Shown: one piece after another, positions 4,751-22,100 of the stretch
Numbering within the stretch: position 1 is the first letter of the stretch
How the letters are laid out: every line of letters starts with the position of its first letter
IMG/VR virus record: IMGVR_UViG_3300017971_000212
Source of the DNA: an uncultured virus (IMG/VR IMGVR_UViG_3300017971_000212)
Taxonomy: Duplodnaviria; Heunggongvirae; Uroviricota; Caudoviricetes
Reading direction: 5' to 3' (one strand)
Length of the DNA: 64,000 bases
Translations under genes and position numbers: made by a program
Notes under the pieces: generated by a model
Told to the model about the DNA's origin: nothing
Seen by the model: the letters and a program-made list of their open reading frames with translations, nothing else
Databases searched by the model: none

Positions 4751-4859
4751 GTGTTCCTCGCTTGGGTGCTCGGCACCTCAGCTAAGCGTTTCAGGCGACG
4801 TGCTCAGGGTCCGGGACGAGCCTTGAACGACCGGTCAAGTGGACGAGAGCACGGAGAGA

Positions 4860-4888
4860 AAAGTAGGAGGTTGCGTGCGGCGTGTCAA
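4860..4888 (-). promoter_or_regulatory. host sigma70-type promoter
   Basis: TTGACA (4888-4883), 17-nt spacer, TACTTT (4865-4860), about 110 nt upstream of the 4750 start. Confidence 0.7.
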
Positions 4889-5030
4889 GAATTTCCCGAA
4901 CGGGGCGCCCGTCTGCGATTTTCTCCGTGAAGTCGGGCGCTTCAGATCCCATAGCTAAACTATTGCTGTCTCGATGCCCTCTGGGGATCTCCTGTGGAAA
5001 ACCGAGGGCGAGATCTCGCCTTCGCATTCC

Positions 5031-5044
5031 ATTTTCCCTTCTAT
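5031..5044 (+). promoter_or_regulatory. putative late promoter
   Basis: ATTTTCCCTTCTAT, a variant of the recurrent motif, upstream of the 5091 start. Confidence 0.45.
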
Positions 5045-5090
5045 CGACCGGCCAAGGTGAGGCCCTGAACGCGCCCCGAGAGCCACCCAC

Positions 5091-6308
5091 ATGCCGCAGC
5101 CGAGCCACGAAGCCCTGACGCACGAGGTGGCGCTTCGCTACCTCCGTGCCGCTGTCCGTCGCAAGGTCGGCGCCTTCACGATGGACATGCTCGCTCGGCT
5201 ATCCGTCCTCGAGGGCGCGGCGGGCAAGGCCCCCGGCACGTGGCTCCGGCTGAAGGAGCGGGGCTTCGGACACGCTCTCGACCACTTCGGCCCGAAGCTC
5301 GCGGCTTCCTGGACGGCGGCGACCGACCAGGGCGTCTACGACAGGGCGCTCGCCGTGGCGTCCCGGACTCTGCGCAACGTGTCGGGCATGGACGCCGACG
5401 AGCTCGTGCAGGAGATGACCACGCACTCGGGCACGTCCGCCGGACCCGACCGCAAGCGGCTGTTCCACTCCGTCGGCAAGGCCCTGCGTCGGTACGAGAA
5501 CGACCTCGGCCAGGGCGCCATCACCCCCGACCACTCCCGGGTCAAGGGGACCATCGACAGGTGGGTGACCAACGCCGCCAGGGACGTCATCGGATCATGG
5601 CGGGAGCGCCACATCAGGACCTTCGGCCCGAGCACGCCCGGAGGCTACGATCCGACCCGGACCGTGGGGCGCGGAGGCCTGGACGCCGAGAAGCGCCAAA
5701 ACCTCCTCCTGCTGGCTCTCCAGAGCCCCGGAGGCCCCGGAACGAAACTCAGGTTGGTCATCGACCACCTGATCCGCAGGAACTTCCCCAAGTCCGAGGT
5801 CCCCATCGTGCGGATGTTCCTGAACAAGATCGCGGAGCCCAAGTACAGGTCTGCCGACCAGATGAGGCAAATGGTCCAGAGGTTCGACCCCAACGCCTGG
5901 TTCACCCAGGCCTACAGCCGGGTCCGTCGGGAGATGATGGACGAGTTGGGCGTGAGTGCGCAGAGGCTCACCAACGTGCTCGGCGGCAACGCCCGGAACG
6001 TGTTCCACTTCATGGCGACGAAGGTCGGAACGCATCCGACGGTCAGGCGTCTCATCAACAACCTCGCCGAAGAGATCGAGCTCCTCGAGCCGGCCGCGTC
6101 GCGCATCGCGGTCGAGCGCGAGGAGGACGACGACAGCCGCGAGGCCGAGGTCAGTTCGGACCCGACCCTGGCGAGCGTCCGCGCCGTGCTCGAGCAATGG
6201 TTCGAGAAGGACGAGTACGACGGGTGGGACCGTCAGGTCGGACCCCACCCCCAGCACGGGCGCGGTCCCGTCCCCCTCCGGGTGGCCCGCGCGTGGATGG
6301 TGTCGTAG
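5091..6308 (+). CDS. hypothetical protein, possibly a divergent ECF-like sigma factor with virion tags
   Basis: ASRTLRNVSGMDADELVQEM and IDRWVTNAARDVI resemble ECF sigma2; RREMMDELGVSAQRLTNVL is HTH-like; terminal tags EVALRYL and LRVARAWM. The ORF is solid, the function tentative. Confidence 0.45.
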   Translation: MPQPSHEALTHEVALRYLRAAVRRKVGAFTMDMLARLSVLEGAAGKAPGTWLRLKERGFGHALDHFGPKLAASWTAATDQGVYDRALAVASRTLRNVSGMDADELVQEMTTHSGTSAGPDRKRLFHSVGKALRRYENDLGQGAITPDHSRVKGTIDRWVTNAARDVIGSWRERHIRTFGPSTPGGYDPTRTVGRGGLDAEKRQNLLLLALQSPGGPGTKLRLVIDHLIRRNFPKSEVPIVRMFLNKIAEPKYRSADQMRQMVQRFDPNAWFTQAYSRVRREMMDELGVSAQRLTNVLGGNARNVFHFMATKVGTHPTVRRLINNLAEEIELLEPAASRIAVEREEDDDSREAEVSSDPTLASVRAVLEQWFEKDEYDGWDRQVGPHPQHGRGPVPLRVARAWMVS

Positions 6309-6311
6309 GCC

Positions 6312-9300
6312 ATGGCGAGTCCTCTCGACCTCCGTCGCCTGGCGACCCGCATCGAGGAGCTGCAGCGCGTGCGCACCCACGGCTGGCATCCGGCGGACGA
6401 GATGCGCTTCAAGAGCCGGCTTCCCGCCGGACGCGACAGGCTCAGGCTCCCCGATCCGGTCGAGCTGCGAGCCCGAGCCGATGAGATCGCCCGCGGGGAC
6501 CGCTCGCGGATGGCGGAGATCGCGAGGAGCTGGCGTGCGTGGATGCAGACGGCGCTCGACATGGAGGGCCTCGTCCACGACAACGATCCCCGCAACCCCG
6601 GGCGCCTGGTCCGCGATCTCCAGCGCGGGAAGTTTCCTCGTCGGTTCGCGCGGCTCCTGGTCAGCCAGGCCCTCTCGAGGACGGCTCGGTTCGTGAGCCG
6701 AGAGTTCCTCCACTGGGTCGACCGGCAAAGGTTCCGGCATCCGCAGACGGGCAACCGCGTGAAGTACAAGTCGCTGCCCGCCCGGGAGCAGAGGCGCATC
6801 CACGAGCAGTGGTCTCGACGGCAGTCCCCGGGAGCCGCCTCCTTCCCGGCCGAAAACGTACAGGAGCCCAAGCCGGGGAAACGACGAGAGGAACCCTGGA
6901 AGTGGGGGGACATCGACGAGACGGCTCACGTGGACCGCGGCTCGATCACGTACAAGCAGTCCGAGGTCTCCGGGAGGGTTAGGGTCGAGGGGAAGAGCCG
7001 GGTGCGGGGACGCGTGGCCGACGAGGCCGTAGTGCGCAACGCGTCATCGGCGACGGAGCCTCCGTGTCGGGCAGCGCGACCGTCGAGGACGCCGTCGTGA
7101 ACGGGCCAGCTCGCGTTGAGGGAAGGGCTCGCGTGGGGCCTGGCGGCCGCGTTCAGGGAAGGGCCACGGTTGGAGGCGACACGGAGGTCAGGCGCGCGAC
7201 CCTTCGGGGCGGCAAGTGGAACGGCCAGAAACTCACCAAGGCCGGAGAGTGGCACGACTCCTACGACCAGGAGACCATCGACGCACTCGAGCGAGAGTTC
7301 GAGGAGCCCGGCAGCCAGGGGGCGGCGGCCGCGGGAGACCTGCCGATCCGGCTCATGAGTCACTACCTGGTCTCGGGAGGGAGCACGAAGGGACTGCTCG
7401 GGGGCGACGCCAGTCGCGAGAGAATGGCGAGGCGGCTGCGGAAGCACGCGATCCGCAACCGGGGCGAGCTCGGGTCCGGGGCGGCACGCGTCGCCGACCG
7501 TTTCGCGGAGATCTCCGACGAGGGGTGGGACGTGGTGATGAGACACGCCAGGCGCGGTGCCGAAGCGAAGAAGAGGAGGGCGTTCATGCTTTACCAGATC
7601 GTGAAACTCGCGCTTGAAGAGCCGGAGCATCGCCCGGTGGTGATGCCCCTGGTTCGGATGGCCCGGGAGAGACGCGTCGCGGCGAATGTTTCCGAGCTGC
7701 GGACCGCGGTGATCCGTGCGGCGTACGACGCGGCGAGCGCCGCGACGCGTGCCGCCCTAGTCCGTGCCGTGAAGGCGGCAGACCATCTCCTGGCGAGCGA
7801 GGCCGCAGATCTCGAGGGGGCCATCACGCTGACCCGCGAGGAGCGCGCCGGACTCGTCAGAATTGCCTTCACGACGCCGGACGCCGGACGCCGCAGGCAG
7901 ATCCTCGGCATTCTGAAGGAGGCCAGGTACAGCAAGGGGTTCCTCAAGTGGGTGCAGAACAAGGAGTTCAAGCATCCCGAGACGGGGAACATGGTCCAGT
8001 TCATCTCGCTGCCTTCCCAGGCCCAGAAGGAGGTCCACAAGCAGTGGAAGGCGGGCAAGAAGGAGTGGGCGCAGCAGCACAAGCCCGAGGGGCTCTCCAA
8101 GAAGACCGAGCTCACGCCCGAGAAGTTCGACGCGCTCAAGGAGGGCGACCTCCTCTGGATTTCCTGGCAGCCGTTCGTGTTCCACAAGGTCACGGGCAAG
8201 AGCAAGACCTCGACCGGAAAGGCGACGGTCAGGCTCTCCCGCGTGGACAAGGAGGACCCCTCTAAGGTGGTGGAGGACGAGGACTTCTGGCTCCACCGCT
8301 CGTCGGCTGGCAGCAAGACCCACGATATCCACGTGGTACCCCCCGACCTCGCGAAGCCGAAGGCGGAGGAGCCGAAGGAGGAGGCGGAGGAGCCGAAGGC
8401 ACCTCCAGCGGGGCCCGAGATTCCCACGCCGGAAACCGAGGCGCCGGAGGAACCACAGAAGCCCGAGCCGCAGGCCGAGAAGCCGGAACCTGAGGAGCCG
8501 AAGGAACCCGACATCGACAGCCCGTCCTCGATCAAGCCGGGGATGTTCCTACAGAACGCCTGGGGCACCGTCGGCAAGGTGACGAGCATGCTGCCCGACG
8601 GCGGCTTCCGCTTCCGTACGTGGGACTCTAAGGCGGGCAAATACAGCGGTACCAAGAAGATAACGCAGCAGGCAGCGCAGGAGTGGTTCGACAAGGGCAA
8701 CAAGTTCACGTCCGTCGAGGATCCCGCGCCCGCGAAGCCAAAGAAGAAAAAGAAGAAGAAGGAGGAGGAGGAGAAGCCCGCGTTCAAACCCACCGGTAAG
8801 CACAAGGACCGCGAGGAGCTCCGCGGCAAGGCGCAGAAGGAGTCGACGCCCGAGACCAAGATCGAGGCACCCAAGTGGCTACACGACCAGATCATAGCGG
8901 TGGGGGCGCCTCCCACCATGGCGCCCGAGATGAAGAAGGAGACGGTGGAGAAGTTCGAGAACATCACCGTCGGTGCCGGGCACAAAATGCTCGGCAACAT
9001 CGAGCAGGCCCTGGCCAGCCCCGGTGGTGAATACCTGGAGGCCCTAGAGACTCTCGGGTACAGCCCCGCGGGCCTCAAGACGCTGCAGAGGAAGCTGCGG
9101 AAGGCCCTGAGACCCTACGCGGGACGCAGGTACAACCAGGCCGTGCTCGGGGTCGCCAACGAGTGGGACCTCGAGGGCGAGGACGCCGACGAGCTGTACG
9201 ACTTCAAGGCCGACAAGCCCGCGTGGGGCAAGAAGCTCACCGACGCCCAGCTCATGCAGAAGTTCCTCTCCAAGGCCAGCCCCGAGACTAGGGAACGGAT

Positions 9301-9382
9301 GCAGGGCATGTCGGTGGCCGACTTCATGATCATGTACAAGTCGATCATGGCCGAGGACGAGGAGGAAGAGGAGGCGACATAG
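6312..9382 (+). CDS. large modular protein with a 1-nt frameshift near 7043 (joins ORFs 6312-7100 and 7064-9382)
   Basis: Hexapeptide-like repeats (VSGRVRV..VADEAVVRNA) continue as VIGDGASVSGSATVEDAVV in the shifted frame from 7043. Two HPxTGN modules and three helical tags; the C-terminal part is paralogous to the next gene. Possible internal start AGGAGG(7574)-ATG(7586). Confidence 0.7.
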
Positions 9383-11572
9383 ATGGCGCTTGAACTCGAC
9401 TCCTCGGGGCGCCGTCTCGTGCGGATGGCCTACCGCGTCACCGATCCCGAGCTGCGACGTCGGATCCTGGAGGATCTCCGCGCTGCTCGACAGCCCTCCC
9501 TCTCGCCGCTGGCTCGGAAACTCGTACGCGTGGCGTTCGCCACGACGGACGAGACGCTGCGGCGCGGCATCCTCGATTCCATCCGCACGGCCGCATACGC
9601 GCCCGAGTTCCTCGAGTGGGCCAGAGCTCGCAAGCATCGCAAGTCGACCACCGGGAACCGGGTCAAGTGGGACTCGCTGACCTCGCAGGAGAAGGCTCAG
9701 GTCCACGCCCAGTGGCAGCAGCAGGCGCAGGGGCAGCCCGCCGAGGGAAAACCTGCGCAGCCCCAGGCGCCCTTCACCGGGGTGTCGGGGGAAGTCTACG
9801 AGAAGCTGAGCGAGTTCTACCCCCGCAGGCCGAAGGACATGGACGAGCTTCGCGAGATGCACGAGAAGGGCGAGGCGTGGCACCTTCCGGCCGTCGCCAT
9901 GACGGCGGGCGGAGGCATGAAGTTCTGGGAGGCGCGGGGGGAGGACGGCAAGATCTCGATTCGGTGGGGACCTGTCGGAGGCTGGCAGCAGAGCAAGCCG
10001 GGCAAGAGCCTTGAGGACGCCATGAAGCGTTTCCAGGCCAAGGCGCACAAGGGCTACATGGTCGCCGGGCCGGGCCTCGCCATGTCCTTCTCCGGCGGCC
10101 CTGTCGGCATGAGCGGAGACACGCTCTGGAAACGTCTCGAGAAGGACTACGGGGACGATCCCGCGAAGATGCGGAAAGTGGTCGAGGCGGCCGTGTCGCA
10201 CCTGGAGAACCTTGACTCCACGGATCCGGGCCAGTGGCCCGACCTCGCGAGCACGGCCAAGGAGCTCCGCGAGAGGTTGAAGGAACAGGCCAAGGAGCCG
10301 GAGAAGCCGGAGAAGCCGAAGAAACCCGAGAAGAAGAAGGTGCAGCCGAAGCAGACCGATCCCCTCACGAAGACGCAGAGGGAGGAGGTGGACGAGCTCG
10401 TCATGACGATGAGCGGCGAGGTCACCGCGGTCGGCGACCTCGTCAAATACGTCGACAAGATCGACGCGATCCTGCCAGAGGGCCTCACGACCGCGCAGCG
10501 CCGCGGGATCTTCGAGGGCGTCGCGAAGGATCTGGCCGACCACCTCGACACGGCGGCGTTCACCGTCGACGATCCTGGCGATTCCCAGCTCTATCACGAC
10601 ACGGCCTACACCATTCGCCAGCACGCGAAGGAGTGGGCCAAGCAACAGTCCGAGAAGAAGCCGGTGAAGAAGGAGCCCGAGAAGGAGCCCGAGAAGCCGA
10701 AGGAGAAACTCGAGATCGGAACCGAAGTGACGAGCACCGATCAGATGGTCCCGGGCATGTTCATCTCGAACAGCGCGGGCATTGTCGGCAAGATTACTAG
10801 CATCCTCCCTGACGGCGGGGTTCGCTTTCGCACTTTCGACACGGGCGCCGGCGAGTACCGGAAGGGTACCAAGACGATGTCGAAGGAAGATGCGGAGGCG
10901 TGGTTCGCGAAGGGCAACTCCTTCACGGTCACCGAGGATCCGGCGCCGAAGAAACCCAAGAAGCCCGAGAAGAAGGAGCCCGGGGCTCCGAAACCGACCG
11001 GCAAGTACAAGGACCGCAAGGAGCTCCGCGGCAAGGGCAAGAAGAAACCGACCGACAAGGTCGAGGCCAAGACGGCGCTGGGCGAGAAGTTGATCCCGCC
11101 GGGGCTCAAAGGACCGCAGCGGGACGCGGCCGAGAAACAGCTCGAGGGCCTCACCTACGAGGGGCTCTCCAAGATCCGTGGTCACCTGGCAGCGGCGCTT
11201 GCCAGCCCCGACAGTCCCTACGCCAAGGGCCTCGCGAAGGCGGGCTACGACACGAGCGAGAAGGCCCTCAAGGGCCTCCAGGCACTTATCGACGAGCGGC
11301 TTGAGGACGTCAAGGGACGTAGGTACCACTCGGACGTGCTGGGAGTCGCCAACAAGCACGACATGGAGGGAGAGGACGCCGACGCGCTTCACGAATTCAA
11401 GGCGAGCAAGCCGAAGCGCGGCAAGAAGCTCACCGACCAGGAGCTCATGCAGAGGTTCCTGTCCAAAGCCAGTCCCGAGACGCGGGAGCGCATGCAGGAC
11501 ATGCCCGTGGCCGACTTCATGGTAGCCTACAAGGCCATCATGGCCGACGAGGAAGAAGAGGAGGCCGCATGA
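9383..11572 (+). CDS. modular protein with a WGR-like domain, tandem paralog of the upstream gene
   Basis: KFWEARGEDGKISIRWGPVG..KAHKGY is WGR-like. Shares PGMF..GK(V/I)TS(M/I)LPDGG and KKLTD..LMQ.FLSKASPETRERMQ with the upstream ORF. Confidence 0.75.
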   Translation: MALELDSSGRRLVRMAYRVTDPELRRRILEDLRAARQPSLSPLARKLVRVAFATTDETLRRGILDSIRTAAYAPEFLEWARARKHRKSTTGNRVKWDSLTSQEKAQVHAQWQQQAQGQPAEGKPAQPQAPFTGVSGEVYEKLSEFYPRRPKDMDELREMHEKGEAWHLPAVAMTAGGGMKFWEARGEDGKISIRWGPVGGWQQSKPGKSLEDAMKRFQAKAHKGYMVAGPGLAMSFSGGPVGMSGDTLWKRLEKDYGDDPAKMRKVVEAAVSHLENLDSTDPGQWPDLASTAKELRERLKEQAKEPEKPEKPKKPEKKKVQPKQTDPLTKTQREEVDELVMTMSGEVTAVGDLVKYVDKIDAILPEGLTTAQRRGIFEGVAKDLADHLDTAAFTVDDPGDSQLYHDTAYTIRQHAKEWAKQQSEKKPVKKEPEKEPEKPKEKLEIGTEVTSTDQMVPGMFISNSAGIVGKITSILPDGGVRFRTFDTGAGEYRKGTKTMSKEDAEAWFAKGNSFTVTEDPAPKKPKKPEKKEPGAPKPTGKYKDRKELRGKGKKKPTDKVEAKTALGEKLIPPGLKGPQRDAAEKQLEGLTYEGLSKIRGHLAAALASPDSPYAKGLAKAGYDTSEKALKGLQALIDERLEDVKGRRYHSDVLGVANKHDMEGEDADALHEFKASKPKRGKKLTDQELMQRFLSKASPETRERMQDMPVADFMVAYKAIMADEEEEEAA

Positions 11573-11985
11573 CTCCCCGCGACCGAAAGCTGATCCGACT
11601 GGCCTTCCACGCTCGGGATCCCGACCTGCGGCGTCGGGCCGTCGGGCACCTGCGCAGCGCGAGGGAGAAGCTTCCGAGGCAGCCGTGGTCGGTGATGCAG
11701 GAGGCCCGGGAGGAGGGGTTGATCGCTGGCGAGGACGAGGATGACCTTGAACTCGAGGCCGTCACCCTGTTCGACTCCCCCGAGGAGGTTGTGGAGGAGG
11801 TCTTGAAGACGGCCGCGTACGCCAAAGAATTCCTTCAGGGGGCGGACGGCACGAAGACCGAGAAGAAGTCGAAAAAGACTTCGTTGAACTCGGAGGATCG
11901 CGCGCTCATCAAGATGGCCCGCGCGACCGGGTGCCCGGAGTTGCGCCGCAGGCTCGTGAGGCTCGTCATCCCGTCCGACGGCTGA
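11569..11985 (+). CDS. small protein made mostly of helical tag motifs
   Basis: KLIRLAFHARDPDLRRR and ALIKMARATGCPELRRR; KTAAYAKEFL matches RTAAYAPEFL in the upstream gene. Confidence 0.65.
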   Translation: MTPRDRKLIRLAFHARDPDLRRRAVGHLRSAREKLPRQPWSVMQEAREEGLIAGEDEDDLELEAVTLFDSPEEVVEEVLKTAAYAKEFLQGADGTKTEKKSKKTSLNSEDRALIKMARATGCPELRRRLVRLVIPSDG

Positions 11986-12044
11986 GCCCGAACCGCTCCG
12001 CGGGTGTACAACCACCGGGACCTCACATCCCAGGTAGGTTTAGC

Positions 12045-12581
12045 GTGCCCGAAACCCTCGAACAGAGGTACGACCGAGTTTCTAGGGAACAGAAACGTAC
12101 CCTGGTCGTCCGCGCCGACGACTTCCGGTGCGACGAAAGGGGCGTCTACGACCACGGGGGCGACATGGGCGTGATCGCGTGGCGCATGGCGGAGCGCGTG
12201 TTCAGGGAGCTGCTGCCGGCCGTGGACGAGGTCAGGGCTCTGGTTGGGGCGCCCGGAGCCGGAAAGACGACCTGGTTAGAGCTTTGCGGCGTTCGTGGCG
12301 TCCTGTACCTCGACACCACGCTGTCTCGCAGGCTGTCGCGTCGCCAGGTGTGCATGGCCGCGCTGGCGGCGGACAGGGTGATCGACTGCGTGTTCATCGA
12401 CACCGAGCTCGAGGTGTGCCTCGCGCGCAACCGGAAGAGATCTCCCTCGCGGCGGGTGCCCGACGACCGGGTGCGAGACGCACACCACAGACTCGTCCTG
12501 TGTCCGCCTGACGTGGACGAGGGCTGGCGCAGGGTCTTGCATGTCTCCGGGGGCCCGGACCTCACCTGGGTGCTCCTGTGA
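12045..12581 (+). CDS. P-loop kinase, AAA_33 / polynucleotide-kinase-like
   Basis: LVGAPGAGKTTW, YLDTT, FIDTELEVCLARNRKR..VP and PPDVDEGW; start taken as GTG 12045. Confidence 0.75.
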   Translation: MPETLEQRYDRVSREQKRTLVVRADDFRCDERGVYDHGGDMGVIAWRMAERVFRELLPAVDEVRALVGAPGAGKTTWLELCGVRGVLYLDTTLSRRLSRRQVCMAALAADRVIDCVFIDTELEVCLARNRKRSPSRRVPDDRVRDAHHRLVLCPPDVDEGWRRVLHVSGGPDLTWVLL

Positions 12582-12599
12582 ACGCAGGTGACTAAGCGC

Positions 12600-12628
12600 T
12601 TGACACGGGCTCGCACGATCTCTAGTGT
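12600..12628 (+). promoter_or_regulatory. host sigma70-type promoter facing a non-coding region
   Basis: TTGACA (12600-12605), 17-nt spacer, TAGTGT (12623-12628). Confidence 0.7.
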
Positions 12629-12633
12629 GCGTC

Positions 12634-13110
12634 GGCCGTCTCCCCTCCGCCTCGTGCGGAGGCGAACCCCCGCGGGTGGAACGAGCTAACGCAAGTAGCG
12701 CGTTCTGGGGGTCGAGCGGAACGCTCGGGCGCGTCTAACGCCAAGCATTCAGGTTCCCCGACGCAATCCTCGACGGGAACTCTTGGTATCGGCGCCCACG
12801 GGTGGGGAAGCTGGGGAAACCCAGGAGGGACGACGAAGCCTCCGAGACGGCCCCTCAGGCCACCTACGCAAGAGGTCACGAACCGGCGAGGGAAAAGGTT
12901 GCACTGGACGGGCTGACCCTCCGAAAGCTGGGTCCTCAGGATGACTCGCCACGACCAAGCCTCCGACCGACGACCTCCTTCGTGCCCAGGGCGCGAAGGA
13001 GACCCATCGATCAGGGCGCGGTCCGCGGGGCACTCCCACCTCGCCTCTCGCCCTCGAGAGCGGGACTCCGTCGACGTCCTCTGGATGGGACCCGACGGTC
13101 GTCCTGCCTC
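12634..13110 (+). ncRNA. putative large structured non-coding RNA, family unassigned
   Basis: GGCCGTCTC (12634-42) pairs with GAGACGGCC (12844-52) and encloses six hairpins with GAAA/GCAA loops; further stems continue to about 13110; no credible ORF. Confidence 0.65.
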
Positions 13111-13118
13111 AGGTTCAA

Positions 13119-13322
13119 TTAGGGTTTGTAGAGAGGTGTCGTCTGTCCGAAGTCATCATCTGACGAACACGAGTCCTGAAAATCCATCCTCACGTTTCAC
13201 GAATCTTCACCATCATCCCCATTCACCTTCTCACGGTAGTCACGACGGGGAAGCGAGCTGGACCACGACCACGGGGAGGAAACTCGAGACCTAGGAGGAG
13301 CGGAAGAGGCTAAAAACCCTGA
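13119..13322. repeat. imperfect inverted repeat enclosing a strand-skewed TCAC-rich tract
   Basis: TTAGGGTTTGTAG (13119-31) and CTAAAAACCCTGA (13310-22); six TCAC within about 13190-13243. Confidence 0.4.
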
Positions 13323-13338
13323 CGGGGGAGGCTAGTCG

Positions 13339-13352
13339 GGTAGCCCGTCTAT
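13339..13352 (+). promoter_or_regulatory. putative late promoter
   Basis: GGTAGCCCGTCTAT upstream of ATG 13371. Confidence 0.5.
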
Positions 13353-13370
13353 GCCCCTCTTTAATGGAAG

Positions 13371-13778
13371 ATGTCCGACAAGCGCAGGGCGCGGCAGGGG
13401 AGCGTCGGGGGGAACCTGACCCCGAAGCAGGCCAAGACCGTGCTGGCAGCTCCCGTCTACGCCATCCTGTCGGGACGTGCGGTTCCCATCTTTCCGGGAA
13501 CCAACCTGGCGAGCTCGTCGGGGTTGGTGGGCATATTCAGGAAACCCGGCAACCACTGGCGCGCCATCTCGGGCCGCGTGGCCGCCGGGTATCCGGTCTG
13601 GGTCAACGGGAGGCAGTGGAACCGCGCCGTGGTTCCGGTGCTGACCGACCCTCGCTGGTCGACCGCGAACCCCGTGTTCGCCCAGACGGCCTCGACCAAC
13701 CTCAATCACGTGATCGACTTGATCGGGGAGGCCCTCGCCCAGAGCTTCCACGAGGCCGGATACGGACCGCTGCCCTGA
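13371..13778 (+). CDS. hypothetical protein
   Basis: 135-aa ORF with genome-typical codons; its stop overlaps the next start (TGATG). Confidence 0.6.
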   Translation: MSDKRRARQGSVGGNLTPKQAKTVLAAPVYAILSGRAVPIFPGTNLASSSGLVGIFRKPGNHWRAISGRVAAGYPVWVNGRQWNRAVVPVLTDPRWSTANPVFAQTASTNLNHVIDLIGEALAQSFHEAGYGPLP

Positions 13779-14008
13779 TGGCCTCGGTATCGTGGCCCGA
13801 CATGGGCGAGAACAAGCCTCCTTCCCAGCTCGCTCCCGGCGCCGTTGAGCGCCCTGAGAACGAGGTCGTGTGGGTCTCCTGCCGCGCCAAGAACTCCTGC
13901 AACGGGCGGCGCGCCAGGGTTCTTTTGAAGAAGAACGACGGGATTCACGGAACGTGGATTCAGTACGTCTGCCTGACGTGCAACACCCCGTTTTCCATCC
14001 GCGTCTAG
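13778..14008 (+). CDS. small zinc-ribbon-like protein
   Basis: CRAKNSC and CLTC cysteine pairs. Confidence 0.6.
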   Translation: MASVSWPDMGENKPPSQLAPGAVERPENEVVWVSCRAKNSCNGRRARVLLKKNDGIHGTWIQYVCLTCNTPFSIRV

Positions 14009-14021
14009 GTGTATAAGGAAG

Positions 14022-14636
14022 GTGGAGACCTACCGCTCTTCCCTCCTTTTCCACGGTCCGACCGCCCGCGCTCAAGCGCTCGCGATGGTGCCGAGTCTGG
14101 GGCGTCTCCTGCATGAGCCGTTCGGCGACGACGGGCTCAAGATCGCCGAGAGCAGGGAGGTCGTCGAGCTAATGAACCATGCGCCCGTCGGCGACCGCCC
14201 GGGGGTGGTCGTGATCGGACCCGTCTGTCGCGCGCCGCCCTTCTCGACGGACGTGCTGCTCAAGAGCATCGAGGAGTTCGACCAGCGGACCGTGCGGCCC
14301 GTGCTGTGGGCGTTCGACGAGGCCGAGGTGAGCGCGACCCTCCGTTCGCGCTGTCTGGCCCGTTGGTGTCCCGGAACCCGCGAGGTCGTGCCCGACGCGG
14401 CAGAGGCCGCGAGACGGGCCGTGGACGCGGTGCTCCTCGGGGACGCCGCGGCCGTCATCGAGGCGCTTCACGAGACCGATGGGCGCCTCGTGCTCGAGGC
14501 GGCCGCGGGCGTGTTGCTCGGGCGCGGATTGGACGACGTCGCGGGACTCCTCTGGGAATCCGTGAGGCTGCCCCTGCGCTATCGCGATCCGACACCGACC
14601 GAGGCCCTGGCCGCGTTCCTGGGGGCGATCCCGTGA
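14022..14636 (+). CDS. holB: DNA polymerase III delta'-like clamp-loader subunit (short, degenerate)
   Basis: DVLLKSIEE and ATLRSRC (SRC motif); no intact Walker A. Confidence 0.6.
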   Translation: METYRSSLLFHGPTARAQALAMVPSLGRLLHEPFGDDGLKIAESREVVELMNHAPVGDRPGVVVIGPVCRAPPFSTDVLLKSIEEFDQRTVRPVLWAFDEAEVSATLRSRCLARWCPGTREVVPDAAEAARRAVDAVLLGDAAAVIEALHETDGRLVLEAAAGVLLGRGLDDVAGLLWESVRLPLRYRDPTPTEALAAFLGAIP

Positions 14637-15637
14637 GTCAGTGGCGCAATCCACCCCCCGTCGTCGTGCTGTCGGGCTCCGAGAACTTCTTGCGCAGGCG
14701 CGAGCTCCGGGAGGCGGTCTCCGTGTCCGAGGCGTGCGGTCGTACCGTCGAGTACGCCCACGGCCGAGACCGGGACGAGATCTCTCGCGTCCTGTCGAGC
14801 ACGGGGGTCTTTTTCGACCAGAAGGTCCTGCTGGTCGTGGAAGAACCCGAGAAGGTCGACGCCGAGCTAGTCCTCCGGCACCATGAGGCGGGCGACTCGT
14901 CCGCGGCCGTCGTCCTTCACCAGGAGGGCGCGATCAAGGCGAAGTCGGGCCTCGGGCGCGTGGCGAAGGAGCTCCCCGAGCGTCTCGTCGCGCGCTTCGA
15001 GAAGCCGAAACCGTGGGAGGAGACGGACAGGGCGATCTCCTTCTGCGTGAAGGAGGCCACGCGCCTAAACGTCAATCTCTCGGAGCAGCTCGCGACGGCC
15101 GTCGTGCGGGCAGTGGGAACCGAGCTGGGGGTGCTCGCGTTCGAGATCGAGAAGATCGCGCTGTTCCTGCGATCGGTGGGCGAGAGGACGGTCACCCTCG
15201 CCCACGTGGGGGGCACCGTGGGCGCCCTCGGGGGGTTGGGCCCGAGGCCGGTGGTCGAGGCGCTCGGGCGCAGGGATCTCGCGGCGACGGGGCGCGCGCT
15301 CACCAGCGTGCGGAGGGCGCACGGCGGTCACGAGGGCGGCGCCGTGCTCCGCGTCTGCGCATTCGTCGGGCCCGCCGCGACGCAGTGGATGCACGTCGCG
15401 TCCCTCCTTCGCGCGGGCCTCTCCGCCGACGCCGTCGCCGAGAGGGTCGGTGTGCACCCCTTTGCGCTCCGCAAGAACCTCCTTCCCGCCGCAAAGCGGT
15501 GGGGCCAGGTACGATTAACCTCCCTACTAAGGTCGCTGGCTCGTGTGCAGCGATCTGTAAGGAGCGGTCACGTCAATCCGTGGGTCGAGCTCGAGTGCGC
15601 GTTGCTTCGCTCGCTATGCGAGGGGTCGTCGGGGTAA
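14633..15637 (+). CDS. holA: DNA polymerase III delta-like subunit
   Basis: PVVVLSGSENFL, LAFEIEKIALF, GVHPF and a C-terminal VRSG..PWVELE follow the HolA pattern; GTG start overlaps the upstream stop. Confidence 0.75.
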   Translation: MSQWRNPPPVVVLSGSENFLRRRELREAVSVSEACGRTVEYAHGRDRDEISRVLSSTGVFFDQKVLLVVEEPEKVDAELVLRHHEAGDSSAAVVLHQEGAIKAKSGLGRVAKELPERLVARFEKPKPWEETDRAISFCVKEATRLNVNLSEQLATAVVRAVGTELGVLAFEIEKIALFLRSVGERTVTLAHVGGTVGALGGLGPRPVVEALGRRDLAATGRALTSVRRAHGGHEGGAVLRVCAFVGPAATQWMHVASLLRAGLSADAVAERVGVHPFALRKNLLPAAKRWGQVRLTSLLRSLARVQRSVRSGHVNPWVELECALLRSLCEGSSG

Positions 15638-15777: not shown

Positions 15778-18387
15778 ATGTTGCAGCAGGCTGAAAGCAC
15801 TGTCGTCATGAAGGACTCTCCCGACGTTTCCAAGAAGACCGGCGAAGACGGAAGCGGAAACGGGAAGCACGCCACGACGGTGCATGGGACGTACTCTCAC
15901 GAGGAGGTGAGCGCCGCGACCCTGGAGTTCTTCGACGGAGACGAGTTGGCGGCAGACACGTGGGTCTCGAAGTACGCGCTGCGAGACGGCGACGGGCGGT
16001 ACGTCGAGAAGACCCCCCCCGACATGCACTGCAGGCTCGCGCGAGAGTTCGCCAGGATCGAGAAAAGCTACGAGAACCCGATGTCCGAGGAGGAGATCTT
16101 CGGCCTGCTGAGCGACTGGACAGTCGTGGCCCAGGGTTCTCCGATGAGCGGCGTCGGCAACCCGTTCCAGCTCCAGAGCGTCTCCAACTGTTTCGGAATA
16201 TCGCCGCCGTTCGACTCCTATGGTGGGATCCTGCTCACGGACCAGCAGCAGGCGCAGATCATGAAACGTCGCGGGGGCGTCGGAACCGACATCTCGACGT
16301 TGCGTCCCAAGGGGATGCCCACGGCCAACGCGGCCCACACGACGGACGGCCTCGGGATCTTCATGGAGAGGTTCAGCCACACCTGTGGCGAGGTCGGCCA
16401 GGGCGGACGACGCGGGGCCCTCATGCTCACCTGCGACGTGCACCATCCCGAGATTCGACGGTTCATCGGCATCAAGGATGAGCGCTCCTCCTGCCGCGTC
16501 TGCGGCCACGAGGAGCGCACGCGCGTCACGAAGGCGAACGTGAGCGTGCGCCTGAGCGACGAGTTCCTCGAGGCAGTCGAGAAGGGGGAGAAGTACCAGA
16601 TGCGCTGGCCGTGCGACCCGGATCAGAAGCCGGTCCTGGAGGAGTGGACCGACGCGCAAGAGATCTGGGACGACATCAACCAGCACGCGCGAGACAGCGC
16701 CGAGCCCGGGCTCCTGTTCTGGGATCGCATCCTCCGCGAGAGCCCGGCGGACTGCTACGCGGACGTGGGCTTCAGGACGATCACCACGAACCCGTGCTCG
16801 GAGATTCCCCTGAGCGGCGCGGACGCGTGCCGGCTGCTGCTCGTGAACCTCGCGAAGTTCGTGAAGGACCCCTTCACCGACAAGGCGACGTTCGAGTGGG
16901 CGCGCCTGCACGAGGTCACCAAGAAGGCTCAGCGCCTCATGGACGACCTCGTGGACATTGAGCTCGAGCAGGTCGACAAGATCATCGCGAAGATCGAGGC
17001 CGACCCGGAACCCCCCGAGGTCAAGACCGTCGAGCTCGGGCTCTGGCGGAAGATCCGGGCCTCCGGACACAACGGCCGCCGCACGGGCCTCGGCGTCACG
17101 GCGGTCGGGGACACCATCGCGATGCTCGGTCACAAATACGGCAGCGATGAGTCGATAGATCTCGTCGAGAAGATCTACAGGGCGCTGGCCGTGGCCTCCT
17201 ACGAGTCCTCGATCGAGATGGCCGGAGAGCGCGGGTGCTTCCCCGTCTACAACTACAAGAAGGAGGAGGGACATCCCTTCATCGAGCGCGTCCTCGAGGC
17301 GGGGGGCGAGGAGCTGCGCACCAAGTATGAGCGGCACGGACGCAGGAACATCGCGAACCTGACGACGGCGCCCACAGGAAGCGTCAGCCTGCTGACCCAG
17401 ACCTCGAGCGGCATCGAGCCGATCTACAGGGCCATCTACACGCGTCGCAAGAAGATCAACTCCGGGGATCCTGACGCCCGGATCGACTACGTGGACGCGT
17501 CGGGCGAGGCGTGGTCCGAGTACACGGTGCGTCACCACGGACTCGTCAGGTGGGAGCAGGTCACCGGCAAGGGGGACGAGGACTTCGAGGAGAGTCCCTA
17601 CCACGGGGCCGAGGCCCACGACCTGGACTGGAACCAGCGCGTCAGGTTTCAGGCGGCGGCGACCCGGTGGCTCGACCACGCCGTGAGTTCTACGATCAAC
17701 CTACCGGAGGACGTGTCCGTCGACACGGTCAAGCAGATCCACTGGATGGCGTGGAAGTCGGGATGCAAGGGCATCACGACCTACCGCGAAAACTCGCGGG
17801 ACGGCGTGCTCGTCGAGAAGCGCGAGTTCCTCCAGCACAGCGCGCCTAAGCGTCCCGAGCGGCTGCCCTGCGACATTCACCGCAGCCGCGTCAAGCGGGA
17901 GGACGGCGAGTACGAGGACTGGATCATCTTCGTCGGACTGTTCGAGGGCAAGCCGTACGAGGTCTTCGGCGGCACGACCGAGAACATCGAGCTCCCGAAG
18001 AAGGTCACCGAGGGTCACATCGTGAAGCGGGCGCTGAGGTCGGGCGGCAAGTACGATCTTCACTATGGAGAGGCCGACGACCCGCTCAAGATCAAGGATA
18101 TCGTCCGGCAGTTCGACAACGCCGATAGGGGCTGGGCGACCCGCATGATCTCACTGGCCCTCCGACACGGGTCTCCGCCGCAGTACATGGTCGAGCAACT
18201 CCAGCACGATAAGGACAGCGACCTCTACGACTTCGCGAAGGCCGTCGCCCGCGTCCTCAAGAAGTACATCCAGGACGGGACGAAGTCGGGGAAGAAGATC
18301 TGTCCGAAGTGCGAGGCACACGACAGCCTCCGGTATCAAGAGGGGTGCCTGCTCTGCATCTCGTGCGGCTACAGCAAGTGCATGTAG
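15778..18387 (+). CDS. nrdJ: class II (adenosylcobalamin-dependent) ribonucleotide reductase
   Basis: SNCF, GGRRGALM, TNPCSEIPL, TTAPTGS, SSGIEP, GCKGITTYR and C-terminal CPKC..EGCLLCISCGYSKC; no beta subunit nearby. Confidence 0.93.
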   Translation: MLQQAESTVVMKDSPDVSKKTGEDGSGNGKHATTVHGTYSHEEVSAATLEFFDGDELAADTWVSKYALRDGDGRYVEKTPPDMHCRLAREFARIEKSYENPMSEEEIFGLLSDWTVVAQGSPMSGVGNPFQLQSVSNCFGISPPFDSYGGILLTDQQQAQIMKRRGGVGTDISTLRPKGMPTANAAHTTDGLGIFMERFSHTCGEVGQGGRRGALMLTCDVHHPEIRRFIGIKDERSSCRVCGHEERTRVTKANVSVRLSDEFLEAVEKGEKYQMRWPCDPDQKPVLEEWTDAQEIWDDINQHARDSAEPGLLFWDRILRESPADCYADVGFRTITTNPCSEIPLSGADACRLLLVNLAKFVKDPFTDKATFEWARLHEVTKKAQRLMDDLVDIELEQVDKIIAKIEADPEPPEVKTVELGLWRKIRASGHNGRRTGLGVTAVGDTIAMLGHKYGSDESIDLVEKIYRALAVASYESSIEMAGERGCFPVYNYKKEEGHPFIERVLEAGGEELRTKYERHGRRNIANLTTAPTGSVSLLTQTSSGIEPIYRAIYTRRKKINSGDPDARIDYVDASGEAWSEYTVRHHGLVRWEQVTGKGDEDFEESPYHGAEAHDLDWNQRVRFQAAATRWLDHAVSSTINLPEDVSVDTVKQIHWMAWKSGCKGITTYRENSRDGVLVEKREFLQHSAPKRPERLPCDIHRSRVKREDGEYEDWIIFVGLFEGKPYEVFGGTTENIELPKKVTEGHIVKRALRSGGKYDLHYGEADDPLKIKDIVRQFDNADRGWATRMISLALRHGSPPQYMVEQLQHDKDSDLYDFAKAVARVLKKYIQDGTKSGKKICPKCEAHDSLRYQEGCLLCISCGYSKCM

Positions 18388-18642: not shown

Positions 18643-19188
18643 ATGACGACCCCGCTCAAGGGACTCAAGGTCGTGGACGCGCTGGGCGCGTTCTACCGCG
18701 ACGGCGACCGCCTCATGGTGGCCGACGAGCTCGAGGGTACGCGCGACGTGGACAAGATTTTGAGCGCGTTCGAGGGTCACGAGGTGAGGCTCCTGGCGCA
18801 CCATCGACCGCCTGACGTCCCGCTGCGAGACAGGTGGGGAGCGGGCTGCTGCCTGCTCGAGAACACGGGCCGCTGCCACTACGGGCACCACGATGATCCC
18901 GGGCTCCTGTTCGCCTTCGACTCCGTCGGCGTCCTGCGACGGGAGAAGGACGACTGGATCGTGGAGAGGTCTGACGGCGAGCGACTGCGGGTTTACGTGA
19001 ACTTCTTGGTGGGGCACAGGTCGCAGGTCGTTGTCACGTCTATTCCCGACCTAGAGAGCATCGACGAAAAGATCAAGTCGTTCGATCCGTCGAACCTGGA
19101 CCCTACCAACCTCGAGGACCTCACCGGGCGCCTTCACGAGATCCGCGAGTTCCTTCAGCAGGTCGAATCCCTCAAGCGAGATCTTTGA
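18643..19188 (+). CDS. hypothetical protein
   Basis: 181-aa ORF; stop overlaps the recD start. Confidence 0.7.
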   Translation: MTTPLKGLKVVDALGAFYRDGDRLMVADELEGTRDVDKILSAFEGHEVRLLAHHRPPDVPLRDRWGAGCCLLENTGRCHYGHHDDPGLLFAFDSVGVLRREKDDWIVERSDGERLRVYVNFLVGHRSQVVVTSIPDLESIDEKIKSFDPSNLDPTNLEDLTGRLHEIREFLQQVESLKRDL

Positions 19189-22100
19189 TGTCCAACTACT
19201 ACGCCGGGCGCGTCCAGACGGTCGTCTTCGAGAACGACGCCCAGAGCTTCTACGTCGTCAAGATGGTCCTCGACGGTCGAAAGGGGAAGAACGCCTCGGT
19301 GACGGTCCGCGGGAACGTCCCCGGACTCGAGGTGAGGGAGGGCAGCTGGTTCGGCTTCGAGGCGAAGTGGCAGAACCATCAGACCTACGGACGCCAGCTC
19401 GTCATCTCGCGCGCTCCGGTCGTCAAGAGTTGGGACGCCCAGACGACCGTGAAGATGCTGCAGGGCCACGGCGTGGGGAGCAGGGTGTGCGAGGCGCTGC
19501 TCGCCCACTTCGGAGAGGGGCTGCCCGACGCGCTCTCGGACAGCGAACGTCTCCAGGAGGTCCCCTCGGTCTCGGAGTTCACGGCGCACTACCTGGTGAG
19601 CAGGTGGCAGGCCGTGCGTTCCATGTTCCAGTCGCTCAAGTTCCTCTCGGACCTGAACCTGCCCAAGCGAAAGATCGAGCGGATCTACACCCGTTTCGGG
19701 GACGAGGCCGAGCAGGTCCTGAGCGAGAACCCGTGGGCGCTGGTCGAGATCGACGGGATCACGTTCGACCAGGCCGACGAGGTCGCGATGCGCCTCGGAC
19801 TCGACCTGAAGTGTGCCGGACGCATCAGGGGCGCGGTCCTCCACACCTGCAAGGTGCGCCGCGGCATGGGGCACCTGTACCTGAACTCCGGCGAGATCGT
19901 GCAGGGCGTGCACCAGTACGCGCCCGACACGGAGCGACAGCGCATCGCGGAGACCCTCAAGGGGCTCCACGACGAGTCCCTGCTCGTGCTCGACAACCAG
20001 ACCCGGCCACAGACCACGGCCATCTACGAGCCCTGGTTCCACGAGGTCGAGAGGGAGAGCGCCCGTCTCCTAGCGGAGAGGATGGAGCACGCGAGCTTCG
20101 AGGACGACGACGACTTCGCGGAGTACCTCGAGAAGCTCTCCTCCGTGGGCCCCGAGACGAAGAAAGTCGCGGAGGCAGGGAGTCGCGGGCTCGGGGACGT
20201 CGCGCAGGCGGCCATCACCGAGTGGTCGAGCCACGGCGAGATCCGACTCTCCGAGGCCCAGCTCGAGGGCGCCGTCAACGCCCTAGTCGAGCCGGTGTCG
20301 ATAGTGACGGGACTTCCCGGGACTGGGAAGTGCGTGGTACCCACCACTTTAGTGAGCGGCCCCTGGGGCGCGCGGCCCATCGGAGACTTCCTACCGACGG
20401 GTCTTGCACCTGACCAAGACCAGACGCTTTCCCTCGACATTGATACGAGCAGGGGAATCGAAAAAACGGCGTACATCTACAATGGAGGCGTAGCTCCCAC
20501 TGTCCGCATCACGACGCAATCGGGGTATACCTTGGAGGGCACTCCAGAACATCCCATCCGCATCGTTCAGGAAGGGGACTTCGTCTGGAAAAAGATGGGC
20601 GACCTGGGCGTCGGTGATGTCCCTGTCATAGTTCGGGGCAGTTTCCACTCCTCAGGGTCCGGCGGCGCGGAGCTGCCCCCGCTGACCGAAGGCGACTATC
20701 GGGAATTTCGATACCGCAGCCCTAGACGGATGTCGGAGGCTCTTGCGCGGGTCTTGGGTTACCTGATCTCAGAGGGCACCGTCACGAGTGCCTCCCACTG
20801 GGCCGTGACCAACCACGATCCTCGCGTCCGCAACGACGTCAGGCGGTGGTGCCAAGATCTGTTCGGCTACGAGGTCCGAGATCATTATGACAAGCGAGTC
20901 GGTGGCCTCGTGGGTGTCCGTCTCAACAGCGTACAGCTTATCAGGTGGTTTCGGGCGTTGGGCGTGGGTGCCGCCACCTCCTTCACTAAAACCGTCCCGC
21001 ATGTCATTTTGGCGGGATCGGAAGGCGAGCGCCGAGGTTTCCTTTCCGCTCTATTTGAAGGAGACGGCACCGTGCACGCTGAGCGGTTTTCGGTTGAATA
21101 TGGAACCCGGTCCGAGAAACTTGCACGCGGTATCCAGTATCTACTTCTGACGCTCGGCATCGTCTGTTCTTTTCGTGAAGAACAGAGAGAGGGCGCCTCG
21201 TGGTACCGGCTCTCCATGTACGGGCAGGACTACGACAGGTTCCGAGAACGTGTGGGGTGCGAGTTCAAGGTCCTCCCTGAGAGAACCACGAAGACCAACA
21301 CGAACCGGCACCTGATTTACAACGCCGAGTCGCTCATCGAGGCACTCATGGCACAGACGCGTCCCAGGAAAGGAACTGATTACGATCGGTTTTACCGATA
21401 TGGGAAGGGGAAAAACGGTAATGAACGGCATCCGTCCCGCGAACATCTGGAGCAGCTGCTGGGTTACGCGAAGAGGTCAACGCCAGTCACCGAGAGACTC
21501 CGGGCTTTGATGCGAGAGGATTTTTTCTACGACCCCATCACGACTATTGAAAGCGGCGTTTCCCAAGTTGTCGATTTCGGTGCGCCAGAAAGTCACGAGT
21601 TTCTCTCAAACGGGTTCATCAGCCACAATACGACCCTGCTGAGGATCGTCGTCAAGGTGCTCCAGGACGCGGGGGTGCCCTTCCTGCTCGTGGCCCCGAC
21701 GGGCATCGCCGCCAAGCGCATCACGGCGGTCACGGGCGCCGAGGCGTCGACCATCCACCGGGCGTTCGGAGCCCGTGGCGCCAGGAGCGAGGACGGTCGA
21801 GAGAGCACCTACGCCGGGATCGTGGGTGACGCGGTGTCCACCGTGGACGCCGACGGCAGCGACGAGTACTGGAGCTTCTCGACGATGCGCCCGCACCCGG
21901 CGCGCGTGGTGGTCGTGGACGAGAGCAGCATGATGGACCAGCACCTCCTCTTTCGGCTCCTGAGTTGCACCGTCTCGAGCTGCCGGCTGGTGTTCGTGGG
22001 CGACGCCGCCCAGCTGCCCTCGGTCGGGCCCGGAAACGTGCTGCGCGACTTGGTGGACAGCGAGCGTTTTCCGGTCGTGAATTTGCGGGAGATCTTCCGT

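Follow-up and report, generated by a model that had tools for sequence, protein, structure and literature searches.

What does the 782 nt gap between a P-loop kinase gene and the replication module of an uncultured tailed phage specify? The gap lies in a 64,000 nt stretch of DNA (the window) presented under the IMG/VR record IMGVR_UViG_3300017971_000212 and forming part of G001, a high-GC phage record of 230,069 bp that is rated as 90% complete (all sampled words are common to the two). An initial annotation, made from the letters of the window alone, had placed a structured RNA in this gap. Comparison with related loci revealed a conserved, non-coding, two-domain RNA structure on the + strand, with a conserved promoter, a G-poor tract following it, a conserved order of flanking genes and no counterpart in Rfam. 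The whole RNA, as delimited by nhmmer homology, covariation and a strand test comparing G-U with A-C, occupies positions 12634–13150 (+) and is about 517 nt long (475–522 nt in relatives). Our preferred interpretation, to which we give a probability of about one half, is that 12634 to ~13150 represents the gene of a free, stably folded RNA particle made early in infection, comparable to ROOL and GOLLD among the large RNAs of phages, with a 3' end that would be formed by Rho.

The overall GC content of the window is 66%, and its genes have a third-position GC (GC3) of 0.85–0.95, so that coding DNA is recognizable by GC3 periodicity. This is absent across 12582–13363 and strong in both flanks. 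At about 900 nt by this measure, no other non-periodic stretch of the window is as long; the initial annotation had described the gap as the largest one free of open reading frames (ORFs). The second-longest, of 570 nt, lies at 4636–5206, at the switch from − strand to + strand genes. Two ORFs overlap the RNA region, at 12802–13122 and 12941–13294 (106 and 117 codons), and both were rejected as coding: neither is periodic, and the ATG of the second, which sits in a conserved AGGAUGA, is itself not conserved and reads ACG or ACA in the related loci L012, L013 and L014.

Relatives were collected through the upstream kinase, which has 38 homologs in a large protein collection; an alignment of 34 of these (A2) drew 53 metagenome and 25 IMG/VR loci. 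The search for the family covered IMG/VR, JGI contigs (via the kinase) and one genome per species (via a 20-mer). A nhmmer search with the 782 nt gap over 83 loci returned five copies of the window sequence and 12 other loci (L006–L014, L020, L060 and L062; E-values 1e-62 to 3e-11), and in every case the match lay directly 3' of the kinase gene. Contigs of the family range from 1.5 kb to 618,736 bp (L060), and all loci that extend far enough have the same order of kinase, non-coding region, homolog of a 135 aa protein, small gene and clamp-loader-like genes. A covariance model of the 5' domain (R1) scored 155.6–208.7 bits in the 12 matches at other loci, among which L010 and L011 count separately, and 27.9 bits (E 2.6e-6 in a 24 kb search) at L063 3491–3634, directly after a kinase homolog of ~31% identity and ahead of the same downstream genes. 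The L063 match, whose centre is much shorter, retains helices P1 and P2 and the GAAA hairpin, together with a second hairpin in reduced form, and is probably a diverged form of the RNA. Kinase homologs in other gene contexts (e.g., L016/L061, L064 and L065) are not accompanied by the RNA.

Within IMG/VR, the family was found on four contigs besides G001, and an alignment of the downstream protein found the same four. The pattern GGAGGGNCNACGAAGCCTCC, drawn from one of the hairpins described below, matched only family contigs in IMG/VR (3/3), and a second, looser pattern matched 119 IMG/VR loci, with a single family match (L234, a 619 nt fragment). Single-protein locus searches yielded only the window's own contig and one weak match. 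The 20-mer, searched in one genome each of 185,579 prokaryote species (596 Gb), gave 19 matches, which is about chance by estimate; at none of the 19 did nhmmer detect the RNA, and the covariance model found only the 20-mer itself and weak matches of up to 22.3 bits. GenBank phages showed no match to the gap (blastn) or to two neighbouring proteins (tblastn). Relatives with the conserved core at 12802–12878 and 12619–12911 are present on DNA contigs from sediment, seawater and lagoon metagenomes. In two DNA sequencing runs that contain the phage of the window there is a second contig, of 8,664 nt, that matches only 12802–12878, 13919–13992 and 14131–14282, and from these matches it indicates a co-occurring relative with the same RNA core.

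The window and 11 of the loci were aligned (alignment A3, 12 sequences; L010 is nearly identical to L011 and was left out), and RNAalifold gave a consensus of 86 pairs. Changes on both sides are seen in 49 of the 86, compared with 13–20 when the 3' partners are slid. Of 1018 cells, 92.8% can pair, a level reached by none of 500 shuffles (80.5%), while sliding the 3' partners by 1–3 columns lowers the value to 38.8–54.6%. Cell counts of this kind overstate the number of independent events, because several loci are closely related. There are 115 G-U cells and 15 A-C cells, and the same structure on the opposite strand pairs in only 83.0% of cells; the excess of G-U over A-C therefore places the RNA on the + strand and argues against a DNA element. 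The elements supported by covariation are P1, P2, the base of P3, the whole long arm, the GNRA hairpin and the linker hairpin, and, in the 3' domain, three helices and a hairpin with the loop CUGGAUGG. A column-pair covariation scan of the MAFFT alignment A3, which ends at ~13140, revealed no further helix or pseudoknot with several covarying pairs. The phage-borne and highly structured RNA of the initial annotation is in this way borne out by homology, covariation and lack of periodicity, and its proposal that homologs be collected and examined for covariation has been answered by 12 other loci and by pairing far above the shuffled and slid controls.

A chance assembly of GC-rich stems, a small protein gene or a DNA element (a cruciform or an array of binding sites) would each do without a functional RNA. 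Folding z-scores that are weak on both strands, and the two ORFs of 106 and 117 codons, speak for such an explanation, but with covariation far above both controls, G-U kept where the opposite strand has A-C, no GC3 periodicity and a candidate start codon that is not conserved, its probability is close to negligible. The region is also conserved as much as the flanking genes or more: the 5' domain of relatives is 66–82% identical to that of the window, compared with 63–75% for the flanking coding DNA.

The RNA is preceded by a putative sigma-70 promoter, which the initial annotation had read as TTGACA-17-TAGTGT. The −35 hexamer TTGACA (12600–12605, +) is found at the same place in 11 of the 12 aligned members, being absent from L062, and the −10 hexamer TAGTGT (12623–12628, +), separated from it by a 17 nt spacer, is of a TAnnnT type that is present in all 12 (TAGTGT, TAGCCT, TAGTTT, TAGATT, TAAGTT or TAATGT). 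Transcription is predicted to start at ~12634–12636, and from ~12634 onward the DNA is GC-rich and dense in inverted repeats. The start had been annotated as coinciding with the closing stem, and this agrees with a covariation-supported stem that begins at ~12634/5 and pairs with 12844–12851. In L062, a relative of lower GC content, a strong intrinsic terminator (a GC-rich stem and T run, 3549–3575) lies between the kinase gene and the promoter, just 5' of the −10 element. A generic sigma-70 scan called TTGACA-18-TAGATT in L012 and did not list the site of the window, because TAGTGT matches TATAAT at only three of six positions. The motif was also considered as a common early promoter of the phage and was rejected, since there are just two sites in the window and six in G001 (up to one mismatch). 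The other window site for TTGACA-N17-TAGNNT (up to one mismatch), at 4860–4888 (−), falls within the 570 nt non-periodic stretch, in a divergent region upstream of − strand genes, and points toward a gene for a 609 aa protein (2921–4750, −) with a match to sigma-70 region 4.

The 5' domain (12634–12852, +) is closed by P1 (12635–12642 with 12844–12851), and helices 1–3 of the consensus have all changed on both sides. Within it, the P2 hairpin (~12644–12662, +) and P3 (12668–12670 with 12708–12710, +) are supported by covariation, and P3 encloses a variable insertion. They are followed in the alignment by an invariant junction, CGAGCGGAACG (~12712–12722, +), and by the long arm (12722–12804, +; helices 4–8), in which 19 of 27 pairs have changed on both sides and which is built from 12722–12731/12795–12804, 12740–12745/12782–12787 and 12752–12758/12775–12781. 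An internal loop of this arm, CUAAC opposite AUC, is conserved, and its closing G-U pair is kept in 11 of 12 members; the loop may be akin to the classical GAAA-tetraloop receptor, each strand being longer by one base. A GNRA-tetraloop hairpin (12811–12824, +; helix 9) follows directly on the near-invariant GGUGGGGAAG. Its loop is GAAA in 11 members and GAGA in one, and two of its four pairs covary, the outer one being UA, AU or CG. The last hairpin of the domain, GGAGG/CCUCC (12824–12843, +; helix 10), carries a near-invariant 10 nt loop, G-N-C-N-ACGAAG. Its stem shows no covariation, being invariant in all 12 members, and because of this invariance the GAGG/CCTC stem annotated here is neither supported nor contradicted. 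The hairpin has a faint likeness to a segment of a cyclic-di-nucleotide riboswitch, but no Rfam model supports this and the idea was rejected. A pairing of the 10 nt loop with GGUUG was likewise rejected, as it involves a variable loop position without covariation.

The two domains are connected by a variable linker hairpin, CCCUC/GAGGG (12852–12892, +; helix 11), in which all five pairs have changed on both sides and which bears a GCAA-loop sub-hairpin in six of the 12 members. A single-stranded block, (A)AAAGGUUGCAC (12893–12905, +), comes next, with AAGGTTGCAC invariant in 12 of 12. The core of the 3' domain (12915–13036, +; helices 14–16, 8 of 16 pairs changed on both sides) consists of a hairpin (12915–12934), the conserved UCAGGAUGA, two helices (12939–12941/13034–13036 and 12945–12949/13025–13029) and a conserved ACACUCC, and has a variable insertion at 12950–13024. 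Further on are the hairpin with the conserved loop CUGGAUGG (13068–13098, +; helix 17, 5 of 6 pairs changed on both sides), a small hairpin of variable sequence (13103–13113, +) and, within 13103–13138 (+), a conserved A/U-rich box that reads UUAAGAGUUAAGA in most relatives and CAAUUAGGGUUUGUA in the window. The invariant or near-invariant blocks across the RNA are CGAGYGGAACG, the internal loop CUAAC/AUC of the long arm, GGUGGGGAAG, the GNRA hairpin, AAGGUUGCAC, UCAGGAUGA, ACACUCC, the loop G-N-C-N-ACGAAG and the loop CUGGAUGG.

Two long-range helices, LR-A and LR-B, close the 3' domain; they were found by reading the unaligned sequences and were counted for each sequence on alignment A5. The 5' strand of LR-A (13042–13049, +), a pyrimidine block before GCUC, pairs over 8 bp with a purine block that ends the A/U-rich box (13131–13138, +). 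Of 96 cells in this helix 91 are paired, and covariation is seen at six of the eight positions (3–8; e.g., CG/UA and UA/AU/GC). Between L008 and L060, four pairs in a row have both partners changed. LR-B joins 12906–12911 (+), directly after AAGGUUGCAC, to 13143–13148 (+), the last element supported by covariation. Its 6 bp core is paired in all 72 cells, with four positions varying among GC, GU and AU, and the minimum free energy (MFE) fold of the window closes the 3' domain in the same way. LR-A and LR-B also replace a small GUU/AAC helix of the RNAalifold consensus. The two helices therefore place the 3' end at ~13150, and not at 13110 as in the ~480 nt RNA first annotated, and a terminator-like hairpin and the A/U-rich box come to lie inside the RNA. 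The box had been considered as a repeated phage promoter, and this was rejected: G001, G002 and G003 contain at most one copy each, at the locus, aside from two unrelated one-mismatch matches in G002, and part of the box pairs within the RNA.

Most stems of the initial annotation fit this model in whole or in part. The closing stem, CCTCCGC/GCGGAGG, CTGGG-GAAA-CCCAG and the long arm (GGCGC/GCGCC, CCAAG/CTTGG and GTTCCC/GGGAAC) all show covariation. ACCCCC/GGGGGT is supported at its base, and CCGTCG/CGACGG in its inner part. GAACG/CGTTC, GCTA/TAGC, the ACCT/AGGT stems (whose ACGCAAG loops are GCAA tetraloops) and CTCCTTCG/CGAAGGAG lie in variable insertions and are lineage-specific. Three stems gave way to pairings with better support: the CGCTC of CGAGCG/CGCTCG pairs with 12800–12804; GGCGAG/CTCGCC is replaced by pairings of GAGGG with 12852–12856 and of CTCGC with 13025–13029; and CTCTCG/CGAGAG by LR-A.

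The whole window produced no match to Rfam 15 at gathering scores. When E-values of up to 10 were allowed for 12400–13500, only the archaeal small nucleolar RNA (snoRNA) PyrR209 appeared (E 6.7), and was taken as chance, and ten homologous loci gave seven weak, non-recurring matches, one of them in the RNA region and on the wrong strand. Models of ROOL, GOLLD, OLE, HEARO, raiA, RNase P, self-cleaving ribozymes and known aptamers matched neither the window nor the ten loci. A transfer-messenger RNA (tmRNA) was found neither by ARAGORN nor by Rfam, and the 5' end of the RNA pairs with its positions ~210–217 and not with its 3' end. Group I and group II introns gave no Rfam match; the upstream gene stops at 12581 and the downstream start at 13371 is conserved, and because the flanking genes are intact the element is not an intron. 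The Rfam search proposed earlier thus gave no known family, and the annotated lack of tRNA, tmRNA, RNase P and intron cores is confirmed by ARAGORN and Rfam. The RNA might still belong, as a far-diverged member, to one of the large families already described (RNase P, tmRNA, introns, ROOL, GOLLD, OLE, HEARO/omega RNA, raiA or a riboswitch). Huge phages carry tmRNA and other translation-related RNAs, and the size is close to those of RNase P RNA and ROOL, but we regard such membership as very unlikely: there is no credible Rfam 15 match in the window or in ten relatives, ARAGORN finds no tmRNA, and the complete flanking genes leave no exons to splice. A literature search found no description of the RNA. 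Its assignment to a new RNA class, which the initial annotation had offered as a possibility, stands on the comparison with Rfam 15 and the literature searched. A screen of IMG/VR for structured RNAs by Fremin et al. (2023) produced 10,006 unnamed candidates (PMC10690425); the part of its supplements that was searched held no match, and the catalogue may already list the RNA unnamed.

Several known RNAs resemble it in one respect or another. ROOL and GOLLD are large RNAs of phages and prophages that have no assigned function and form RNA-only assemblies (PMC12286853). Like the RNA described here, ROOL is phage-encoded, non-coding, ~500–650 nt long and folded into an elaborate, covarying structure, with no known function or protein partner (PMC12286853). 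ROOL differs in often being near tRNA islands and in forming a homo-oligomeric nanocage (PMC12286853), whereas the present RNA lies between a kinase gene and a replication module, and is known only from a few metagenomic huge-phage contigs. GOLLD, another large, ornate RNA of phages and prophages, has come in part from environmental metagenomes, and its expression accompanies phage lysis (PMC12286853). It too has two parts, one better conserved and one more variable; it often exceeds 800 nt, however, is often linked to tRNAs and has a universally conserved 3' region, while here the better-conserved part is the 5' domain. OLE is ~600 nt long and ornate, with many invariant nucleotides (PMC9723947, PMC12286853). 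Unlike the phage-borne RNA, it is chromosomal, occurring in Gram-positive extremophiles and anaerobes, with Oap protein partners and a membrane localization.

The 110 nt that follow the RNA (13151–13260, +) form a G-poor, C-rich tract that resembles a Rho-loading (rut) site, with 18% G in the window. In all 12 members this segment has 4–19% G and 27–37% C, compared with 28–36% G in whole loci, and GC content falls to 38–57% at 13120–13300. A second conserved non-coding block, at 13261–13370, precedes the gene for the 135 aa protein (13371–13778, +), and is also seen in L007, L060, L011, L006 and L009. It has hairpins with GAAAC loops, a AAUUUCGCGGGAAU-like segment in several relatives and, in nearly all members, GGUGnUGnGCCUAUnG at 13–17 nt from the start codon on its 5' side. 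A promoter or a cis-regulatory element in its own right may reside in this block.

Such an arrangement raises the possibility of action in cis, which the initial annotation had not considered: a leader of ~740 nt, with the RNA as its 5' portion, would precede the replication operon that begins at 13371. The fold of the RNA, perhaps bound by a metabolite or protein, would decide on Rho termination in the tract, or the RNA would modify the polymerase for processive antitermination. The put RNAs of phage HK022, ~70 nt long with two stem-loops, direct processive antitermination. They are promoter-proximal structured RNAs of an early phage transcript, as the present RNA would be, and a similar action in cis on the host polymerase would suit its position, with a Rho-type tract and a long operon of the same direction ahead; the present RNA differs in its ~517 nt and two domains, and shows no match of sequence or model. 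In favour of a leader, the RNA is co-oriented with the block of 13371–13778, clamp-loader, ribonucleotide reductase and helicase genes in 12 of 12 loci and in the divergent L063. The G-poor, C-rich tract between RNA and gene is likewise found in 12 of 12, and is followed by GC-rich hairpins and the conserved block before the start codon. On the other hand, a two-domain RNA of ~517 nt is far above the size usual for cis-regulatory RNAs, matches no known aptamer family and has a structured part that stops ~220 nt 5' of the start codon. No conserved pairing alternative to LR-A and LR-B was seen by eye, no dedicated search having been made, and the one 6 bp candidate for such a pairing in the window is absent from L060. 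We rate a leader, by either mechanism, as the main rival to a free RNA particle, though a minority possibility.

The gene directly 5' of the RNA, in every related locus that extends that far, encodes a P-loop kinase of the polynucleotide-kinase type (11931–12581, +; Pfam AAA_33, E 3.7e-7), whose true start is probably later, the database form having 178 aa. The RNA might then be a ribozyme or a partner in RNA processing, cleaving itself or another RNA or serving as a substrate, with the kinase phosphorylating 5'-OH ends. The kinase gene is adjacent in every family locus that reaches it, including L063, and a profile built from the 34-homolog alignment A2 finds kinases of RNA and DNA ends and a tRNA kinase, its matches including the PDB 4gp7 kinase domain (E 3.7e-6), L-seryl-tRNA(Sec) kinase and mammalian PNKP. 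The invariant junction nucleotides and the size of the RNA are also ribozyme-like. Adjacency is, however, the sole link between the two, kinase homologs of 30–38% identity occur elsewhere without the RNA, no self-cleaving ribozyme of Rfam matches, and G001 has no gene for an RtcB ligase although G002 has two; a partnership of this sort appears improbable. G002 is the 618,736 bp record that contains L060, and its RtcB-type RNA ligases are encoded at 211949–213151 and 582733–583923.

A role in DNA replication was also weighed. ColE1 RNA II primes DNA synthesis, and origin transcripts are known likewise from oriF and oriG of phage T4. These resemble the RNA in being structured transcripts of ~500 nt from a sigma-70 promoter, with an easily melted region, in a replication context; promoter, RNA and low-GC region would together make up a bipartite origin. 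The locus heads the replication module, its promoter is conserved and GC content is low at 13120–13300. The RNA lies at ~162.7 kb of G001, where there is no turn in cumulative GC skew, the extremes being near 30 kb and 60 kb, although GC skew is not decisive for an origin since in phages it also follows transcription. Transcribed, the low-GC tract would give a G-poor RNA, and such RNA in general disfavours a stable R-loop. The invariant loops, junctions and GNRA hairpin exceed the needs of a primer; their conservation points to tertiary folding and less to a control over hybrids. An origin-primer transcript therefore seems a poor explanation, and we give it little weight.

A free RNA particle is favoured by the size of the RNA, the density of its invariant junctions and the GNRA hairpin, which are marks of a compact tertiary fold. 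From the features described above we infer transcription, its timing, 3'-end formation, action in trans and any activity, as follows. Host RNA polymerase with the primary sigma factor would transcribe the RNA from its own TTGACA-17-TAnnnT promoter, and because this promoter is of host type the RNA would be present at the very start of infection. It would fold compactly, P1 closing the 5' domain and the two long-range helices the 3' domain, with the invariant GNRA hairpin, the invariant 10 nt loop hairpin and the invariant junction strands forming part of the fold. Rho would make the 3' end at the G-poor tract. The free particle may serve as a scaffold, a sequestering particle or a catalytic particle (the initial annotation had suggested an early-expressed decoy, scaffold or ribozyme), and is not expected to be an antisense regulator: when the 230 kb genome was searched for complements of seven conserved segments, only incidental ones were found, apart from the RNA's own opposite strand.

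A number of observations weigh against this interpretation. Thermodynamic support is marginal: 12634–13110 (+) folds with an MFE of −228.3 kcal/mol (z = −2.21) and 4 of 100 shuffles are as good, the opposite strand gives z = −1.83, and the longer 12634–13150 (+) gives z = −1.53 with 7 of 100 shuffles as good. In this comparison, which the initial annotation had proposed, folding of the single sequence hardly surpasses the shuffles, and that the structure is more than chance follows from comparison with relatives and not from thermodynamics. The family amounts to ~13 metagenomic loci, several of them closely related, and among the sequencing runs that contain the window sequence no RNA run is listed. 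ROOL and GOLLD often lie by tRNA islands, but here no tRNA is closer than 10 kb, and that one is on the opposite strand. No conserved, self-complementary loop that would suggest oligomerization was found in the RNA. The terminator scan detected no intrinsic terminator after the RNA in L062 or L012, and a Rho-dependent attenuator would account for the G-poor tract no less than a terminator. The conserved gene block begins ~220 nt 3' of the RNA and is co-oriented with it, and no conserved sigma-70 promoter was recognized between the RNA and the gene at 13371; because of this co-orientation and the lack of a recognized promoter between them, the RNA could form the 5' part of the leader of the downstream operon.

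Very few bacterial or viral RNA classes longer than 400 nt and with dense covarying structure are known. Those that are have turned out to be ribozymes, core ribonucleoproteins or, as with OLE, ROOL and GOLLD, unexpected RNA-only assemblies (PMC12286853). The setting of the RNA is distinct, in phages of 230–619 kb, with a host-type promoter and a fixed genomic context, a kinase upstream and a replication module downstream. What is new is the class; large, ornate phage RNAs have precedents as a phenomenon. A bolder reading, which we hold to be less likely than not, is a new class of ornate RNA specific to huge phages, made by the host polymerase within minutes of infection and active in its own right, be it as a new ribozyme or as an RNA-only particle that assembles itself, perhaps working with the adjacent kinase. 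The RNA can be studied as an in vitro transcript without a cultured host, and could show what role large phage RNAs have when infection begins, and how generally huge phages make use of new ribozymes or of assemblies built from RNA only.

The locus is present once in G001, and an identical one is found on a 63 kb IMG/VR contig. Upstream of the kinase gene are genes for two proteins of 772 aa (7064–9382, +) and 729 aa (9383–11572, +), followed by one for a 138 aa protein. The two large proteins are adjacent paralogs with a common C-terminal domain of ~200 aa, and in L006, L007, L008, L010 and L060 the domain occurs 5' of the kinase gene as a tandem array of two or three copies. Neither protein has a Pfam or PHROG match, and the 729 aa protein has no match in the ESM Atlas.

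Downstream, the gene for the 135 aa protein is recognized by its GC3 phase and is conserved in 12 of 12 related loci. The fold of the protein has no assignment: an AlphaFold2 model (mean predicted confidence, pLDDT, of 80) gave no Foldseek match at E ≤ 0.001, and the best VIA-align Z score was 3.5. In L014 (1596–1982) its homolog has one in-frame stop, so that the gene may be a pseudogene there, unless the stop is a recoded codon or stems from a sequencing error. The GC3 phase switches at ~13780 to a second small gene (13700–14008, +), in the frame of ORF 13364–14008 and overlapping the 3' end of 13371–13778, that is kept in 11 of 12 related loci. After these two small genes without known function, the conserved block continues with clamp-loader-like genes (14022–15637), a class I/II ribonucleotide reductase gene (15778–18387) and a RecD2-like helicase gene (19185–22835). 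The only tRNA that ARAGORN detected in the 64 kb is a tRNA-Ser with anticodon GCT (23569–23649, −), on the strand opposite to the surrounding genes. The helicase (1216 aa, + strand) contains an intein with a LAGLIDADG homing-endonuclease domain, which separates its N-terminal domains from its P-loop motor (Pfam Intein_splicing, LAGLIDADG_3 and AAA_30).

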